DNA of 21,096 bases from Candidatus Micrarchaeia archaeon (GTDB taxonomy: Archaea; Micrarchaeota; Micrarchaeia; Anstonellales; J096): assembly GCA_041500405.1 (NCBI GenBank), contig JBGQMB010000018.1, positions 1 to 21,096 on the forward strand. The letters run 5' to 3'. Below, in pieces: positions 9,001 through 15,000 of this stretch (positions are counted from its first letter, which is position 1; the number at the start of each line of letters is the position of its first letter). The position numbers were made by a program.

Positions 9001-12000
9001 GTCTATTGCCTTCGAGGTGAGCTTGCCCCTTGCCTTCACGCCTATCTCCTTTGAGCCGTTCGTGAACTGGGTAAGCGCCGCAAGCACGTAACCCATGGAC
9101 GGCTTCTTTCCGACGAATATCGTGTTGTCGTCGGCCCTGTGCCCGCTGTGCTGTTCCTGTGTTTCATCTGCCATCTCTTTTCACCCCTGTTTTCATTATT
9201 GCCTGACGCCCTTTTTATGCCTTCGCCTATCCGATTTCCTCGACTCTCTTTTTGACTTCGGGGCTTTCCAGCTCCCTGAGCGCGTCCTTGGATATCCATT
9301 TGGAGGACTTTGAGCTCATCTTCGCAATGCCTTTCGCGGTCTTTATCGCCATCCTGTTGAGCTTTGCGTTTCTCTTTCCGATTTGCCTGAGCGCCCAGTT
9401 GACCGCCTTTTTCACGTAGTTGCGCTCATCGCCCGATTCGCGCTTTATGGCATCAAGGAAATTTACAAAGCCCAGGTCCATGACGCCGCTGTCCTTCTGC
9501 GCAAGGCACGCCATCAGCGTGAAGCTCGCCCTTTTCACGAACTCCTCGCGCCGCTTGCTCCATTCCTGCGCCTTTTTCCTTGCGAACGGCGTTTCGCAGA
9601 ACAGGTTCATGCACACCTGGTCGCACAGGTCCCACGAGTCAAACGAAATGACCTGGTGCTCCATCTGCATTTCCGACACCTTTTCAGGCTCGTCAATAAT
9701 GGAAGACAATATCATGGCCTCGTGCATCCCGGAATTCCAGAGCTCAATGGCGAGCGAATGGTTTTTTGGGATTGATTTCGCAAGCTTCCTCAGGTCAACG
9801 ATGCTTATGCCGAACGCCGTTTCAACGTTTATGCCAAACCGCGCCATGCCAGCCCTGTTCTTCTCGTTTTTTTTGCTTTCCATCCAGGCCATTATTTCTT
9901 GGAATGACATCGCCATATCCTATTATAGGGCTTGAACCTTTATAATCTCTTTGCTTCACCATGATAGCGTGATTTCGGCGCAGGGAAAAAAGCTTGTCCT
10001 TTCAGAGAGGGCAGAGCAGAGCAAGGCCCTGAACTTCGGGCTCGGCGAGCTGAAGGGCGGAATCCTTTACCTTGAGCCGGTTGAGGCGCTCTACCTTCAC
10101 GAGATAAAGGGGTTTGAAGCTGAAAACATCGGGACGCTTTTGGAATCTGTCGAGGGCCTGCTGGACAAATACATCGTTTTCAGGGACCTTTCAACGCGCG
10201 GATACAGGACAGGGTTCAGGGCCGGGCCAGCCGGCCAGCCAACAAAGCCCAGCGAATACAGGGGCCAGAAGGCCTCGTTCCAGGGAAAGGCGATAAGGGG
10301 CGCCGCGTCAAAGGGCCTTGTTATCTGTGAAGGCGGCATTGACCTTTACGGAAAATACTGGTTCGGCCAGCATGGCGTATACAAAAGGGAGGGGCTCGGA
10401 AGCGCGCTCATACTTGACCAGTTTGAGGCCGAGTTTTTGAAAAAGCTCGGCTTATTGAAATATTCCGGAAAGCTGAAGAAGATAAGGTATTTTGACGAAT
10501 ACTTCAAGATATACACTGAATGGAGGAGCCTCGGGTTCATACCAAAGGCGGGGTTCAAGTTCGGCGGGGACTTCAGGATATACTTTCCTGGAACAACGCC
10601 ATCCGAGTTTGAGCATTCGAAGCACGTGATGCAGGTTTTCCCTGAAAAATACACGATCGGCGCCGGGGAATGGGCGCGCGCGGTAAGGATTTCGCACGGC
10701 ATAAGGAAGACGTTCATACTCGCGATACCGGAGCTGGTCTCAAGGGTTCCGTTCAAGCCGGACATGTTCGCCGAAAGGGAGGGCGCGGGATACGCGGTAA
10801 AGGTTTTCTACGAATCAGACATCATAAGCGGGAGGGCGCTCCATTCCGCATTGTCATATTGCGCGGAAAAGGGAATCAAGATGTTAATAGCGATTGTGGA
10901 TAGGGACACATCGGTCTCCTATTACACGGTTGAGCGGGTCCTTTTGGAAGGAAGCAAGAACATGTATTTTGAGATTGGCTGGTTCAGGCCCTAAGTCCCT
11001 TTTCTTTGCAAAGAAAAGGCCCTTGGGGAAAAAGAAAGCATAGTGGCACTTGGGGAAAGAAAAGACCGAGAGACCCGAACCGTCGCACAACTGTGGTAAA
11101 ACGTGTTTAAAGATATATTTAAAAAGACTTTGGCGCACATTCATATCCATGGCAGAAACAGTCCAACTGATAAGAGGGAAGAGCCTGGAAATATTCAGAA
11201 CAAACAGCAACGGCCTTTCTGCGCGCGACGCCATAAGGAAGGTCGGCGAGGCAGGGCGTGTGATCGCCTCAAATGCAAGGATTGGCAAGGCGCTTGCAGG
11301 AGATGAATATAAATCAATAAAAGCGGTTTTCCCGTGCTGGACAGGCACGATGACCGCATATGTTGAGCCAGGAACCGCGTTCAACAAGAGCAAAATGTTC
11401 AGCAAGGAACTTCAGGCCATAGTTTATACTGATCCGGAAACAAAAGAGCGCTGGATATTCCCAGTAGGGAATTATAGAAGTGAGAAGAACGCCATCCTGG
11501 TTTCAGAGCATCCGGACTACTCGCTTGAAATCAACGGAAAGGAAATTCTGGTAAAATCAAGCGTCATTGACATTATTCCAAACTTCCCCGAAAAGGACGG
11601 CTGGTATCTCACAGACCCGAAGCATGGCATACCGGTTGGAAGTGAAGTCGGTTCAGATAATCCGAAATCAAGGCATCTGTGGCGGGTTGATGGCGCTGGC
11701 AGGGTCGGCCCTGTTGCCCGCGGCTGCGGCAGCCTCTGCTACGGCGGCAGGGGGCTCGTCCTCATCGGCGACGGGCCGTCGGTCGCTTTCGAGGTGGCGG
11801 TAGAAGCCCCCGAAGGGGGCGCGGCAGTCGAAGCCAAGCCCGCACAGATAACTGTGACAGTGAGCGGCGATACGCTGACTGTCAAGGGAACTCCTGAACA
11901 GCTGAAAGCCGTCCTGGAAATCATCAAATCCGCAAAAAGGCAGACTTGAATAGTGCCCGTAACGCCTTGATTTTTAATTCCTTGTTTTATACTCATAATT

Positions 12001-15000
12001 CCCAGAGTGTGAGGCTGGGCCACACACCCGTCTGTAGTTCCGGCTTAAGCCGGATGTAAAATTCAGCCGCAACACACAGTAAGCCGGTTTGGCGGAAAAC
12101 GTGAAGCGGCGGTGCAGGCTCTTTTGGGCCTTTTTGGCAGATGGGTTACCTTGCGGCCCTGTTGCCCGCGGCTACAACAACCTCAACTACAACAACAGGA
12201 GGAACGTCAACATCAACAACAGGCCGTCGGACGCTTTCGAATGACCCAGCCCCCTCTGGAAAAGGCGGAGCATATGAAGACATACAGGAACCTGTATCCG
12301 CAGCTTTGCTCCTATGAAAACCTTGTGCTTGCGTTCAGAAGGGCAAGGAAAAGGAAGACCCACAAACAGTATGTCGTTGAATTTGAGGCGCGCCTTGAGG
12401 AAAATCTCATGCGGCTTAAGCACGAACTGGAAACGTTTTCATATCGGCCGGCGCCTGTTGCCACATTTATAATAAAGGACCCGAAGACAAGGCGGATAAG
12501 CGCATCGGATTTCCGCGACCGCGTCGTGCACCACGCGCTATGCAACATAATCGGCCCGGTTTTCGAGAGCAGGTTCATCTTCGACTCGTTTGCCAACAGG
12601 AAGGGCAAGGGAACACATTCGGCGATAATAAGGTTTGAGAAATTCATGCGGGGCGTTTCGCTGAACAGAAGGAATTGTACGGACGATATGCATCCACACG
12701 GCAATGCGGTAATCGGCTATGCCTTGAAAGCGGACGTAAGGCACTATTTTGACACCGTGGATCATCGGATTCTGCTTAGCATAATCAAGCGCCGCATAAT
12801 GGATCCAAGTGCGCTTTGGCTGATAAGGATAATCCTCGAGCATCACAAGTCCGCCGCCCCAGAAAAGGGCATGCCGCTCGGCAACTTGACATCTCAGCTC
12901 TTTGCCAACATATACCTGAACGAGTTAGACCAGTTCGTGAAGCATGCGCTGAAGGCCAGATATTATATGCGCTATGTTGATGATTTTGCCATTCTCCACC
13001 GCGACAGGAAAACGTTGGAATGCTGGAAAGGCGGAATATCCGCCTTTCTTGAGCAATGCCTTAATTTAAGCCTGCATCCGGAAAAATCAAAGGTCATTCC
13101 GCTCAGGAATGGCATAACGCTGCTTGGCTTCAGGGTATTCTGCCATTACAGGCTGCTCAAAAAGAGCAACGTCCGCCGCATCTGGAAACGCCTCAGGTTA
13201 TTCAAGCGGAAATTCAATAAAAGCGAAATGGAGAAGACAGAGATTGAGCAGAGCATGGCCGGCTGGTTCGCCTATGCCGCTTTCGCCAATTCATACAGCC
13301 TGAGGCAAAGGGTCGCTGCACGTCTAAATGGGCTTTTTGGATAGAAAAGCATCTTTTTCAAAGAAGTTTCTTTTTATGGGCTCTGGCAACGACGTCTGCC
13401 AAAGCTTTAAAGCAAGGAATTAGTTTATCCGCCATGGAGGCTAGCGAAACATGCCCGCGCATATCATATTTATATATTTTTGCTATCAAAATGATATGCG
13501 GTGAGGCAATGAACATACTTGTAAGGCTCGAGGGGGTTCCGGAAAAGGCCCTTGAATTCATGATAAGCAAGGGATTCTTCAAGACAAAGAACGAGGCGAT
13601 AAGGGCGGCCCTGGTCGGCATGGCAAAGGAATATTCGCTGCTCAACGACGAGGATTTCCTTGCCGCAATAAAGCTGCGCGGCCTTGAGGCAAGGCGGAAA
13701 GCAGGAAAGCTCAGGACCGAAACCCTTGGCGAAGTCAGGAAAAGATACGGGATAAAGTGAAGTATGAAATAATATTCGGCGAAGGATGGGAGCGTTTTTT
13801 CTCCTTTCTCGACAATTCAGTAAAGAAAAACATCCTGCGCAGAATAGGGCGCATGGCCGAAATGCCGCCAGGAAGGCATCTCCGCTTCGGCTCCGGGTTC
13901 TTTGTCGAGGAAATCGGGCAGTACAGGATACTGTATGCCGTTGATGGGCAAACAAAGATAATCTATTTTGTCGGGACGCACAAGGATTACGAAAAATTCA
14001 TAGGCTTGAGGAAATGAGCGTTCAGTTCCTCGTGACCAGCGTTATTATGTCGCCGTCCTTCAAGACGTGGTCTCCGCCCACGCGCTGGCCCCCGAACTTT
14101 GCGCTCGGCCCCCAAACAAGGCAGTAGCGCAGGCTCTTCGCAAGCTCCCTGTGCAGGACCTTCGCGGCCTCCCTCACGGTTGATCTGCTCTTGAGCATCA
14201 TCGGCTTTTCCATATCGGGCTTTCCCCCGGCCGGCTTCGTGAAAACGCGGATGAAGTCCAAATCCCTGAAAATCCTTTCCTTGAGCAGCTCAAGGCCCGT
14301 CTGGTCCTTCGCAGAGACGAAAACGGCATCCCTGAACTTCCTTTTCAGCTCGTCCCTCATTTTGTCGTCGGCAAGGTCTATCTTGTTGATTATCACTATC
14401 ATTTTCGAGTAAATCCTGTTTCTTTCAAGCGCATCTATGAACCTGTCCGCGTCAACGTCCTCACGGACAATCACGGTCGCGTTGTGGATGCTGTATTCGT
14501 TGAGTATCCCCTTCATGGTCCTGTCGTCGATTTTCGTTATTTTCCTTGTCTTTATGATGTTGAGCCCTCCGCGCGGGTGCTTCTCAACTGTCACATCAGG
14601 GAACTTCTCGTTCAGCCTCATGCCCACGCCCCTGAGCTCCCTCATTATGGCGTTGAACTCCTTTTCCGCGGAAAACGGGGTCAGTATTATTATGAGCATG
14701 TCCGAGCTTCTTGCCACGCCGATGATTTCCCTTCCCCTTCCCTTTCCCTCCTTCGCGCCCTCTATTATTCCCGGAAGGTCAAGAATCTGGATTTCGGTCT
14801 CATTGTACTTCATCATGCCCGGAATCACGGTAAGCGTGGTGAACGCGTATTCCGCGACCTTGCTTTTCGCGTTTGTAATGCTCGTCAGTATCATTGATTT
14901 TCCGACTGAAGGGAAGCCTATGAGCGCAACGGTCGCGTCGCCGGTCTTTATTACGTCAAAGCCGCCCCCGCCTCCGCCGCCCTTGCCCCTTTCAAGCTGC

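Follow-up and report, generated by a model that had tools for sequence, protein, structure and literature searches.

The window analysed here, a stretch of 21,096 nucleotides from a Candidatus Micrarchaeia archaeon of the order Anstonellales, carries on its plus strand a target gene containing the VR, the RNA motif RT-16, the template repeat (TR) and the reverse transcriptase (RT) gene of a diversity-generating retroelement (DGR). The target gene spans 11050-11949 in the ORF list, with 299 codons counted from a TTG start, the true start being uncertain. Its product had no match in Pfam, NCBIfam, PHROGs or the PDB, the closest clusters in the ESM Atlas consist of unnamed DPANN proteins (score 0.94), and homologues of the gene lie upstream of RT-16 in other loci. 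The VR (11706-11792) and the TR (12154-12240) form an 87-nt direct repeat with 20 mismatches, every one at a TR adenine and in the first or second codon position of the target ORF. The VR runs into the IMH box (about 11791-11798) and the TR ends in the IMH* box (about 12238-12245), an extension that is seen in relatives, where an A-rich IMH* box in the TR is always matched by a G-rich box in the VR. Passages of Paul 2015 (PMC4372165) report the same contrast, TGGGGT versus TGGAAT, for nanoarchaeal DGRs. Within the target gene, 8 nt after the IMH, we read from the sequence a GC-rich hairpin with a GAA loop (11806-11820), which matches the "GRA trinucleotide loop" hairpin described in those passages (PMC4372165). 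Comparable hairpins follow the VR in most of the relatives listed. The RT gene runs from its conserved start codon at 12274 to 13344 (RVT_1, 3e-20). The best solved relative of its product is the 328-aa "Reverse transcriptase" of PDB 8ub7 chain A (E 4.4e-48), presumably the bRT of Bordetella phage BPP-1 described by Handa et al. The adenine mismatches, the similarity of the RT, the IMH/IMH* boxes and the GAA-loop hairpin identify the element as a genuine DGR.

A preliminary description of this DNA placed the end of the TR 1 nt ahead of the RT start codon, which we revise, as TR/VR homology continues through the IMH* to about 12245 and, judging from the aligned loci, translation of the RT most likely starts at 12274 rather than at 12241. 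At the codon aligned to residue 12 (12274 here), 31 of 33 loci have a start codon; the ATG at 12241 lies within the conserved IMH* box, and its position keeps the RT reading frame in only 12 of the 33. The statement that avd is missing is correct for this genome, in which we found none, and for its family (0/18), but it does not extend to all RT-16 loci, two of which have a PF05635 gene at most 500 nt after the RT.

With cmscan, RF03019 (RT-16) was the sole family above its gathering score in the window, and the match reported earlier was reproduced at 11980-12154 of the plus strand (70.5 bits against a cut-off of 50 bits, covering model positions 1-158), ending, as repeat comparison confirmed, where the TR starts. 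The first 21 nt of the match (11980-12000) fit the model poorly (non-canonical pairs, low posterior probability). The folded motif begins at about 12001, not 11980, and the actual P1 hairpin occupies 12001-12019. In the window, RT-16 starts 31-52 nt after the stop codon of the target gene. P1 is followed by a CCACAC junction (12020-12025) that is invariant or nearly so in 35 aligned loci, and then by the RT-16 core (12026-12146), which we delimited with the Rfam alignment and RNAalifold. The core is closed by helix P2 (12026-12035 with 12137-12146) and, according to the Rfam alignment, includes a conserved single strand (12054-12065) and an interrupted stem with an AGUA/GAA loop (12066-12110). 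Hairpins P3 and P6 also lie within it. A short unpaired linker of about 8 nt (12147-12153), placed by the alignment and by the onset of TR homology at 12154, joins P2 to the TR. RNAalifold found compensatory changes at 18 of 23 pairs of RT-16. P2, P3 and the interrupted stem were 91-98% paired in 35 sequences, and 0 of 500 shuffles scored as high as the whole structure, a significance that this test, like the other shuffle and permutation tests below, overstates because the loci are related and not independent. RT-16 departs from the Rfam consensus in the window's order: P1 is short and palindromic, and one longer helix is replaced by the local hairpins P3 and P6.

Our literature search found no function described for RT-16 (RF03019) and no link to DGRs, and passages of the main text of Weinberg 2017 (PMC5737381) tie RT-10 alone to a DGR; the assignment made here appears to be new, and so is the covarying complementarity between the P1 region and the strand after the TR, described below. 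The assignment, already proposed in the preliminary description, was borne out in a set of 43 motif instances, 37 of which had at least 150 nt of upstream sequence and were counted as assessable for TR/VR. A clear, adenine-type TR/VR pair in the order VR - RT-16 - TR - RT was present in 33 of the 37 and missing in four (L016, L027, L031 and L039), and an RT homologue lay downstream of RT-16 in 38 of the 43. In a separate gapped alignment, in which shorter flanks were also scored, 33 pairs scored at least 30 and 528 of 546 mismatches were at TR adenines. Relative to the last base of the Rfam match, the TR begins at -3 to +2 nt in 29 of the 33 loci; three of the exceptions are matches shortened at the 3′ end by an insertion, and in the fourth the VR is cut by the contig end. 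A second locus set, from a collection-wide scan, gave an adenine-type pair in 53 of 61 assessable archaeal-labelled loci (824 of 856 mismatches at A). These positions support RT-16 as a DGR element directly 5′ of the TR, and likewise the earlier contrast with RT-10 of BPP-1, which lies 3′ of it. Cassettes without an RT (L002, L007 and seven loci of the second set) still carry RT-16, TR and VR, and on one contig two VR - RT-16 - TR units stand in tandem ahead of a single RT. RT-16 is linked to the TR rather than to the RT. The RT-less locus L109 of the second set looks like the same cassette as L007.

When re-counted, RT-16 occurred in 29 of the 151 genomes of the order (26 over the cut-off) and in none of 14 controls, the same numbers as before. 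Five of the 151 have an RT homologue without RT-16: in three the RT lies at a contig edge, in one it is truncated, and one belongs to another RT lineage (36-38% identity). The description of RT-16 as a Micrarchaeota feature was too narrow, since the motif also occurs on contigs labelled Woesearchaeota, Nanoarchaeota, Pacearchaeota and Aenigmatarchaeota, with 20 of the 20 tested passing the Rfam cut-off. Scores on these other DPANN contigs range from 55 to 113 bits, often higher than in Micrarchaeota, and include Nanoarchaeota single-cell contigs labelled SCGC AAA011-G17 (101 bits) and AAA011-D5 (105 bits).

Just after the IMH*, a strand at 12245-12259 is complementary to P1 (duplexfold, -23.4 kcal/mol), and MFE folding of the window RNA also yields this duplex. 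Across loci, cognate P1/post-TR pairs had a mean energy of -22.0 kcal/mol, compared with -15.3 for non-cognate and -9.6 for shuffled pairs, and 0 of 20000 permutations were as low. The result was replicated in 89 loci of the second set (-19.4 cognate versus -12.8 non-cognate; 0/20000). In a fixed alignment the long-range helix was 74.9% paired, against 63.4% when shuffled and 28-50% in slid controls, with a covariation score of 0.411 against 0.222; 0 of 500 shuffles reached either value. Its outer pairs formed in only about half of the sequences of this alignment, perhaps partly through misalignment. The P1 region and the post-TR strand thus make up a covarying long-range duplex that encloses the RT-16 core and the TR. 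P1 alone is a stable hairpin in the window's order (-8.0 versus -3.1 shuffled), so the duplex has to compete with local folding and is perhaps formed only at times; its energy was better than that of both local hairpins summed in 34 of 35 loci.

A TATA-like box at 11971-11978, about 29 nt before P1, is a putative promoter of the template RNA. The CCACA anchor is preceded by TATA-like hexamers whose first base lies 46-50 nt before it, and an 11-nt interval spanning those positions contained one in 23 of 38 loci, against 0-6 loci for eight other, equally wide intervals. This fixed distance suggests that the RNA begins at P1, which makes "VR-to-TR spacer RNA", as the motif had been called, a misdescription. 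We think it probable that RT-16 acts in cis as the structured 5′ part of the template RNA in a DGR lineage of DPANN archaea, small organisms in which the system hypermutates one of the host's own genes. A promoter lying between target gene and motif would start transcription at P1 or close to it, and the RNA would contain, in order, the P1 strand, CCACAC, the P2-closed core, the linker of about 8 nt, the TR with its IMH*, the P1-complementary strand and, where present, the RT frame. Pairing of P1 with the post-TR strand would hold core and TR together in one closed loop and may position the 3′ end of the TR, with the IMH*, at the RT active site. By analogy with BPP-1, as described in parts of bioRxiv 10.1101/2023.10.23.563531, the interrupted stem with its AGUA/GAA loop might bind the RT, P2 could make cDNA synthesis halt on reaching the TR 5′ end, and priming may work in a similar way.

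Other explanations of the motif have to be weighed against this one. RT-16 could be a leader or regulator of the RT mRNA, acting on translation or stability outside the template RNA machinery, given that a same-strand RT gene follows in 38 of 43 instances and that the post-TR strand lies only about 15-40 nt ahead of the conserved RT start codon. The P1/post-TR pairing might, for example, hide the RT ribosome-binding region. Such a role is unlikely, however, as RT-less cassettes keep RT-16, TR, VR and the post-TR complement (L002, -16.4 kcal/mol; L007, -25.2 kcal/mol), with the post-TR strand of L007 being the best partner of its P1 among 37. Moreover, the first tandem unit precedes a second target gene and no RT, and the motif ends at most 3 nt from the TR while its distance to the RT start is not fixed.

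We consider it quite improbable that the complementarity acts at the DNA level, as inverted repeats flanking a mobile or recombining cassette of core and TR, or that it reflects two independent hairpins. G-U pairs, 73 of the 595 predicted, favour the plus strand, pairing of the opposite strand being weaker in 31 of 37 loci and in 66 of 89 of the second set; the post-TR strand by itself forms no stable fold (-2.6 versus -2.3 shuffled); the P1 loop covaries with the middle of that strand; and in loci labelled Woesearchaeota or Nanoarchaeota it pairs with both flanks of the P1 hairpin. In favour of such a reading, P1 is nearly palindromic in the window's order, so that its reverse complement resembles a second hairpin, and several cassette copies per genome, some of them RT-less, could suggest mobility. 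The start of RT-16 only 31-52 nt past the target-gene stop codon, and its Rfam class of small RNA gene, would suit a 3′ UTR or terminator of the target gene, or a free-standing small RNA, lying between VR and TR by chance. This we hold to be very improbable in view of the TATA-like box at a fixed distance between stop codon and P1, the spacing from VR end to motif start (78-369 nt), looser than the 0-3 nt of the TR junction, and the long-range pairing that spans the TR.

As a probable part of the template RNA, RT-16 can be compared with known systems, and its RNA appears to be a rearranged version of the BPP-1 DGR RNA, which consists of the avd 3′ end, the TR and the Spacer (Handa et al., parts of bioRxiv 10.1101/2023.10.23.563531). 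Both are cis-acting structured RNAs around the TR, that of BPP-1 being required by the DGR RT, with two side-by-side helices from which the TR is looped out, one bracketing the TR from upstream to downstream and the other adjoining the IMH*; both have a conserved single strand and, after it, an interrupted stem whose loop is of the AGUA/GAA type, and in both a cDNA stop is expected a few nt before the helix at the TR 5′ edge. Read as a circle, the order is the same, namely primer-side strand, short linker, stop strand, RT-binding elements, stop strand, TR and template-side strand. They differ in that the structured domain lies 3′ of the TR in BPP-1 and 5′ of it in the RT-16 DGR, that the Avd-binding stem-loop is missing in the RT-16 RNA, whose chain ends fall there, that BPP-1 has avd and none was found in the window's genome, and that the TR is 144 nt from the RT start in BPP-1 and about 28 nt in the window. 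Entries of a published motif scan list sarcin-ricin-like loops in both RT-16 and RF03022, the RT-16 match being weak (acceptance 80%, mean score 5.06), and published accounts of BPP-1 structures place an arginine of a nearby protein in that loop. RF03022, the BPP-1 Spacer (Sp), now named Phage_DGR in Rfam and formerly RT-10, shares with the RT-16 consensus the order outer helix, internal loop, inner helix, AGUA/GAA(A) loop and short capped hairpin; homology with the phage RNA nevertheless lacks sequence support, because RF03022 had no match in the window even at E up to 10.

The msr-msd RNA of retrons is flanked by inverted repeats a2/a1, whose duplex likewise puts the template 3′ end beside a conserved junction. 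In contrast to retrons, the window RT falls in the DGR clade, and the window template copies a target-gene segment and shows adenine mutagenesis. We know of no msDNA or branched product of RT-16 DGRs. The linear arrangement, described in part in passages of PMC8867640, is alike, with a 5′ repeat strand, a structured RT-recognition domain, the template, a 3′ repeat strand and usually the RT gene. The DGR of Nanoarchaeota single cells shares with the RT-16 DGR of the window an RT of the same clade (44-60% identity), the IMH/IMH* contrast, a GRA-loop hairpin in the target gene and RT-less cassettes; the passages of Paul 2015 (PMC4372165) that describe it mention no structured RNA ahead of the TR. 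Finally, RT-11 (RF03106), another orphan "RT" motif, matches the same stretch weakly (18.9 bits, E 0.067, against a gathering score of 143.5), and the match aligns the same blocks, namely the ACAC junction, the A-rich single strand and both strands of the interrupted stem.

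An Rfam 15 covariance-model scan of the window returned a single family above its gathering score, RT-16 (RF03019), at positions 11980-12154 of the plus strand. The match spans model positions 1-158 and reaches 70.5 bits against a cut-off of 50 (E 2.2e-9), which places the RNA in this family and reproduces the match reported in the preliminary description. An 87-nt direct repeat pairs a variable repeat (VR) at 11706-11792 with a template repeat (TR) at 12154-12240, and all 20 mismatches between the copies fall at adenines of the downstream one and at codon position 1 or 2 of the ORF at 11050-11949, the target gene. 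The two copies thus differ as the TR and VR of a DGR do, and the earlier assignment of 12154-12240 as the template stands. The target protein has no family match in Pfam, NCBIfam, PHROGs or PDB, and in the ESM Atlas it falls only in unnamed DPANN clusters. The ORF after the TR encodes a reverse transcriptase (RVT_1, 3e-20) in which the motif LGNLTSQ, a mark of DGR RTs, is visible. Its closest solved relative is the 328-aa ‘Reverse transcriptase’ of PDB 8ub7, chain A (E 4.4e-48, with group II intron RTs at 1e-22), taken here as the BPP-1 bRT described by Handa et al., and on sequence grounds the enzyme is assigned to the DGR clade and not to that of the retrons. When gaps are allowed, TR/VR homology takes in the conserved A-rich box that closes the TR (IMH*), and across loci its VR counterpart (IMH) is G-rich at every TR adenine of the box. 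The same contrast has been described in nanoarchaeal DGRs, together with a GRA-loop hairpin within the target gene (Paul et al., 2015; PMC4372165). A GAA-loop hairpin follows the VR in the window, at 11806-11820, so that IMH, IMH* and a post-VR hairpin are all present, in agreement with that description.

Two boundaries of the element were revised. The preliminary description had the TR ending 1 nt before the RT start codon, but the ATG at 12241 lies within IMH* and is in frame with the RT in only 12 of 33 loci, the level expected by chance. A start codon (ATG, GTG or TTG) is aligned to RT residue 12 in 31 of the 33; in the window this codon lies at 12274, which is therefore the most likely RT start and leaves about 28 nt between TR and RT. 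At the 5′ edge, the 21 nt with which the Rfam match opens align to the 14-bp P1 of the model with non-canonical pairs and at low posterior probability, and a 5-bp hairpin at 12001-12019 stands where the consensus has that helix. In the window, as in its relatives, a short P1 hairpin immediately precedes an invariant CCACAC. TATA-like hexamers begin 46-50 nt 5′ of CCACAC; the 11-nt interval holding those positions contains one in 23 of 38 loci, as against 0-6 loci for eight other intervals of equal length. With the usual archaeal spacing between TATA box and start site, transcription would begin at about the first base of P1.

We analyzed 43 instances of RT-16: the order search supplied 30 loci, a sample across the phylum six, and six further stretches seven more. 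The earlier order-wide counts were obtained again, with RT-16 in 29 of 151 genomes (26 above the cut-off) and in none of 14 control genomes. An RT homologue lies downstream in 38 of the 43 instances, and a clear TR/VR pair was found in 33 of the 37 that have at least 150 nt of upstream sequence. A stricter gapped alignment, in which shorter flanks were also scored, likewise gave 33 pairs with a score of at least 30. As an alignment with low gap-extension cost had over-extended some of the pairs, mismatch totals were taken from the stricter alignments: 528 of 546 are at adenines of the downstream copy, and a control scoring that tolerated C, G or T mismatches in place of A reached about half the score. 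The order proposed earlier, target gene with VR, RT-16, TR and RT, therefore recurs in relatives. RT-16 and TR lie edge to edge: in 29 of 33 loci the first TR base is at -3 to +2 nt relative to the point where the Rfam match stops. Among the four exceptions, three have a match shortened by an insertion near the 3′ end, and in the multiple alignment their true RT-16 end also abuts the TR; in the fourth the VR is cut by the contig end. The assessable instances with no clear pair are the loci L016, L027, L031 and L039. Three of these (L027, L031 and L039) are RT-16 copies with no recognisable TR/VR pair or RT and with unrelated genes following, L031 still scoring 78.7 bits; cassettes that have decayed probably left them behind. 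In eight loci (L022, L025, L026, L028, L029 and L040-L042) RT-16 is interrupted by insertions of 40-130 nt, in most cases made of one or two hairpins. These recur at a few sites, for example in the P3 loop, in the P5 loop and in the stretch that separates P1 from the junction, and lower the RT-16 score to 35-62 bits.

The distribution of the motif shows that RT-16 goes with the TR rather than with the RT and is inherited with the former. Two loci, L002 and L007, have a target gene with VR, RT-16 and TR and no RT within 1.5 kb. The cassette of L002 is followed by genes on the opposite strand; that of L007 is followed by an ORF of 333 aa with a helix-turn-helix-like N-terminal start, which may be a transposase. 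Both genomes also have a second RT-16 locus, which is RT-linked. On the contig of L037, two tandem units of VR, RT-16 and TR precede a single RT. The reverse situation, an RT homologue in a genome lacking RT-16, was met in five of the 151 genomes: in three the RT lies at a contig edge, one retains only the C-terminal RT half, and one has an RT of another lineage (36-38% identity). An Rfam scan with E up to 1 detected no RT-16 in three of these RT-positive genomes. The other lineage, the second in the order (L046, on G113:C28), has a PF05635 (Avd-like) gene upstream of its RT and, between the two, a very weak RT-15 match (18.4 bits, E 0.71); it may represent a different type of DGR RNA within the same order.

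The preliminary description treated RT-16 as a feature of Micrarchaeota DGRs, a range that proved too narrow. Within a sample of 151 genomes from the whole phylum the motif occurs in the order of the window and in two more families of the same class (nine genomes), and in none of 30 genomes from ten other families. We then searched one genome per GTDB species with a pattern derived from the RT-16 core, which recognises 28 of the 43 known instances. This collection-wide scan gave at least 119 loci, and in 92 of the 121 matches listed an RT homologue starts 105-280 nt after the pattern, or after the second unit in a tandem locus. By the names in the record titles, tallied by hand among the matches listed, an RT accompanies 36 of 42 loci labelled Micrarchaeota, 27 of 30 Woesearchaeota, 11 of 17 Nanoarchaeota and synonyms, 4 of 7 Pacearchaeota, the one Aenigmatarchaeota locus, 4 of 5 labelled ‘Methanosarcinales’, all 6 labelled ‘archaeon’ and 1 of 11 with bacterial names. 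The lone bacterial-labelled case with an RT, among the matches listed, is probably a misbinned contig of 1.7 kb, its RT sharing 70-78% identity with that of the window; the remaining ten resemble chance matches, of which about 17 are expected. RT-16 scored above its cut-off (55-113 bits, cmscan) in all 20 loci tested that lack the Micrarchaeota label, including contigs labelled Nanoarchaeota SCGC AAA011-G17 and AAA011-D5. In this second set, 53 of the 61 assessable archaeal-labelled loci among the matches listed have a repeat pair of the adenine type (824 of 856 mismatches at A), and in seven of those 53 the flank contains no RT.

There is good support for a conserved RNA fold. From 17 loci aligned with MAFFT, RNAalifold gave 23 pairs, 18 of them with compensatory changes, in keeping with the consensus helices of RF03019, and in a 35-sequence alignment from P1 to the post-TR strand the closing helix P2, the inner hairpin P3 and the interrupted stem are paired in 97.7%, 91.4% and 98.2% of cases, respectively. 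For the whole RT-16 structure none of 500 shuffles scored as high as observed (a significance overstated, as in all our shuffle and permutation tests, by the relatedness of the loci), and partner columns slid out of register were 31-41% paired. The structure does not end at the TR. The P1 region, loop included, recurs as its reverse complement in the 20-26 nt after IMH*, and the two change in step; in the window the post-TR strand lies at 12245-12259. Over 37 loci the duplex energy is -22.0 kcal/mol for cognate partners, -15.3 for non-cognate and -9.6 for shuffled ones, and none of 20000 partner permutations reaches the observed mean. In a fixed alignment, in which its outer pairs are weak, the 14-pair long-range helix is 74.9% paired against 63.4 ± 1.3 in shuffled alignments, with a covariation score of 0.411 against 0.222; neither value is reached in 500 shuffles, and slid controls are 28-50% paired. 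The second set replicated this result in 89 loci among the matches listed (-19.4 cognate versus -12.8; 0 of 20000 permutations). In loci labelled Woesearchaeota or Nanoarchaeota the P1 hairpin is longer, and the post-TR strand pairs with the sequence on either side of it, making a covarying three-way junction. A conserved, covarying RT-16 structure is thus fixed to the 5′ edge of the TR and joined to the region after it by a covarying duplex.

Such complementarity could reflect a repeat at the DNA level or serve translation of the RT, and the data argue for an RNA pairing with another role. G-U makes up 73 of the 595 predicted duplex pairs, and the opposite-strand version is weaker in 31 of 37 loci, both of which argue for a plus-strand RNA and against a DNA-level repeat; in the second set the plus strand gave the better duplex in 66 of 89 loci among the matches listed. 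Since the cassettes that lack an RT retain the pairing between P1 and the post-TR strand, RT translation is not what it serves. Of the two strands only P1 folds by itself (-8.0 versus -3.1 kcal/mol shuffled; post-TR strand, -2.6 versus -2.3), and the duplex is more stable than both local folds summed in 34 of 35 loci. In the minimum-free-energy fold of 11999-12264 (-97.5 kcal/mol, z -2.2) the duplex encloses all RT-16 helices and the TR. We also looked by eye for pairing of IMH* with RT-16 single strands or with sequence beyond the post-TR strand, found only 5-nt matches and set such a pairing aside. Five loci (L009, L014, L019, L022 and L029) carry conserved, hairpin-forming TR inserts of 45-51 nt that are missing from the VR; their predicted folds are hairpins that lack the clean bulge-helix-bulge shape of archaeal introns.

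To our knowledge, the bRT-Avd-RNA particle of phage BPP-1 is the only mechanistic model of DGR reverse transcription. It is Avd-dependent, and all its structured RNA lies 3′ of the TR (bioRxiv 10.1101/2023.10.23.563531). From 5′ to 3′ that RNA consists of a stop strand at the 3′ end of avd, the TR with the template strand as its 3′ part, an Avd-binding stem-loop, a primer strand ending in the priming adenosine, a 2-nt linker, a second stop strand, a short stem-loop, a single-stranded ‘thumb ring’ and a long bRT-binding stem with two interior loops (bioRxiv 10.1101/2023.10.23.563531), parts that we mapped onto the phage sequence and onto RF03022 (current Rfam name Phage_DGR). The window RNA runs from the P1 strand through a 6-nt linker, the 5′ strand of P2, P3, a conserved single strand and the interrupted stem to P6, the 3′ strand of P2, the TR with IMH* and the P1-pairing strand. 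Read as a circle, the order of elements is identical, and the chain ends of the RT-16-type RNA fall at the site of the Avd-binding stem-loop, which is absent here. A duplex between upstream and downstream TR flanks is common to both, although its 5′ strand lies about 150 nt before the TR here instead of next to it. As the preliminary description had it, RT-16 lies on the 5′ side of the TR, unlike RT-10 of BPP-1; RF03022 sits between TR and brt and had no match on 11950-12300 at E up to 10. The two consensus lines nevertheless share the interrupted stem, with an outer helix, an internal loop, an inner helix, an AGUA/GAA(A) loop, two pairs and a cap. Retron msr-msd RNA, the layout of which is in part described in a review (PMC8867640), has the same linear order as the RT-16-type RNA. 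Both likenesses are resemblances of layout. Retrons are further marked by an RT of their own clade and by a branched msDNA that is primed from a guanosine 2′-OH. A published motif scan reports sarcin-ricin-like loops in both RNA families, strong for RT-10 and weak for RT-16, and in BPP-1 structures an arginine of the nearby protein sits in the RT-10 loop.

On this basis a mechanism may be proposed. RT-16 and TR fairly probably form one transcript that begins at P1. The interrupted stem, again with fair likelihood, would be the handle of the RT and let one RT serve several cassettes, because each has its own copy of the recognition domain. TR homology starts about 8 nt after P2, and the BPP-1 cDNA ends 4-8 nt short of its stop duplex (bioRxiv 10.1101/2023.10.23.563531); P2 would fairly likely end cDNA synthesis and thereby set the 5′ limit of the TR. 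How synthesis is primed can be suggested only tentatively: by analogy with BPP-1 and retrons, P1 and the post-TR strand might form a primer:template duplex in which a junction nucleotide primes through its 2′-OH, the alternative being nicked target DNA as the primer. It is conceivable, if rather doubtful, that the RT-16-type RNA is the BPP-1 DGR RNA circularly permuted, lacking the Avd-binding stem-loop and thereby adopting the linear order of retron msr-msd. A conserved nucleotide where P1 meets CCACAC would then prime cDNA by its 2′-OH on the P1/post-TR primer:template duplex, with P2 as the stop and the AGUA/GAA stem as the grapple of the RT. If such a permutation is real, a single RNA domain would let an RT act without Avd and in trans on cassettes that lack an RT, and DGR and retron RNAs would be linked by a common three-dimensional plan.

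The absence of avd noted in the preliminary description extends from the locus to the genome of the window (86% complete) and to its family, with no PF05635 match in any of 18 genomes, but it is not general. PF05635 matches occur in 34 of the 151 genomes of the order and somewhere in 12 of the 29 RT-16 genomes, but in only two of the latter, G125 and G116, does one lie on the strand of the RT and no more than 500 nt downstream of it. The DPANN lineage of RT-16 DGRs is thus mostly, not uniformly, without an adjacent avd, as counted with PF05635, which divergent Avd-like proteins would escape. Most DGRs have Avd, but it is not DGR-defining, because classes without it are reported by Wu et al. 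(2018).

We found no literature linking RT-16 to DGRs or describing a structured domain 5′ of the TR: the portions available to us of the main text of Weinberg et al. (2017; PMC5737381), of Wu et al. (2018), Paul et al. (2015; PMC4372165) and Paul and Eren (2022) contain no such link to RT-16, and the supplements of Weinberg et al. and Handa et al. may bear on the matter. The survey of Handa et al. (bioRxiv 10.1101/2023.10.23.563531) covered Avd-bearing DGRs and five archaeal genomes only, from 40 nt before the TR to 100 nt after it, a range in which P1, about 150 nt 5′ of the TR, would be missed. The results give an orphan Rfam family, left with no assigned function since 2017, a defined job in a defined element, and indicate that the cis-acting RNA of DGRs has more than one fixed design. 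The DPANN lineage, whose RNA is compact (about 265 nt) and whose single RT has about 356 residues, offers a small biochemical system in which an Avd-independent RT can be tested, and RT and RNA together are a candidate for engineered targeted mutagenesis.

Finally, several minor features were recorded. In 27 of the 38 RT-linked entries (L003-L042) the RT gene lies in two reading frames, the N-terminal part covering about residues 12-145 and the C-terminal part about 153-367. Most of the junctions listed hold a tract of poly-G (7-22 nt), poly-C (8-11 nt) or (GA)n, simple repeats that resemble a slippage switch, by phase variation or by slippage during transcription, in the fingers-palm loop, with homopolymer assembly error as a caveat; the RT of the window contains no such tract. 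A weak RT-11 match (RF03106, 18.9 bits, E 0.067) at 11996-12114 of the plus strand aligns the conserved blocks of RT-16, and the two may be sister families. Directly 5′ of the target gene lies a tRNA-intron endonuclease gene (PF01974, 1.1e-23; 9951-10994, plus strand), a neighbourhood that may be more than chance, given the TR inserts in relatives. Two small overlapping ORFs follow the RT at 13434-14017 of the plus strand, the second with a weak ParE-toxin match below the cut-off (E 4.8e-4); the first, which has no family match, looks by eye like the antitoxin of this ParE-like ORF.
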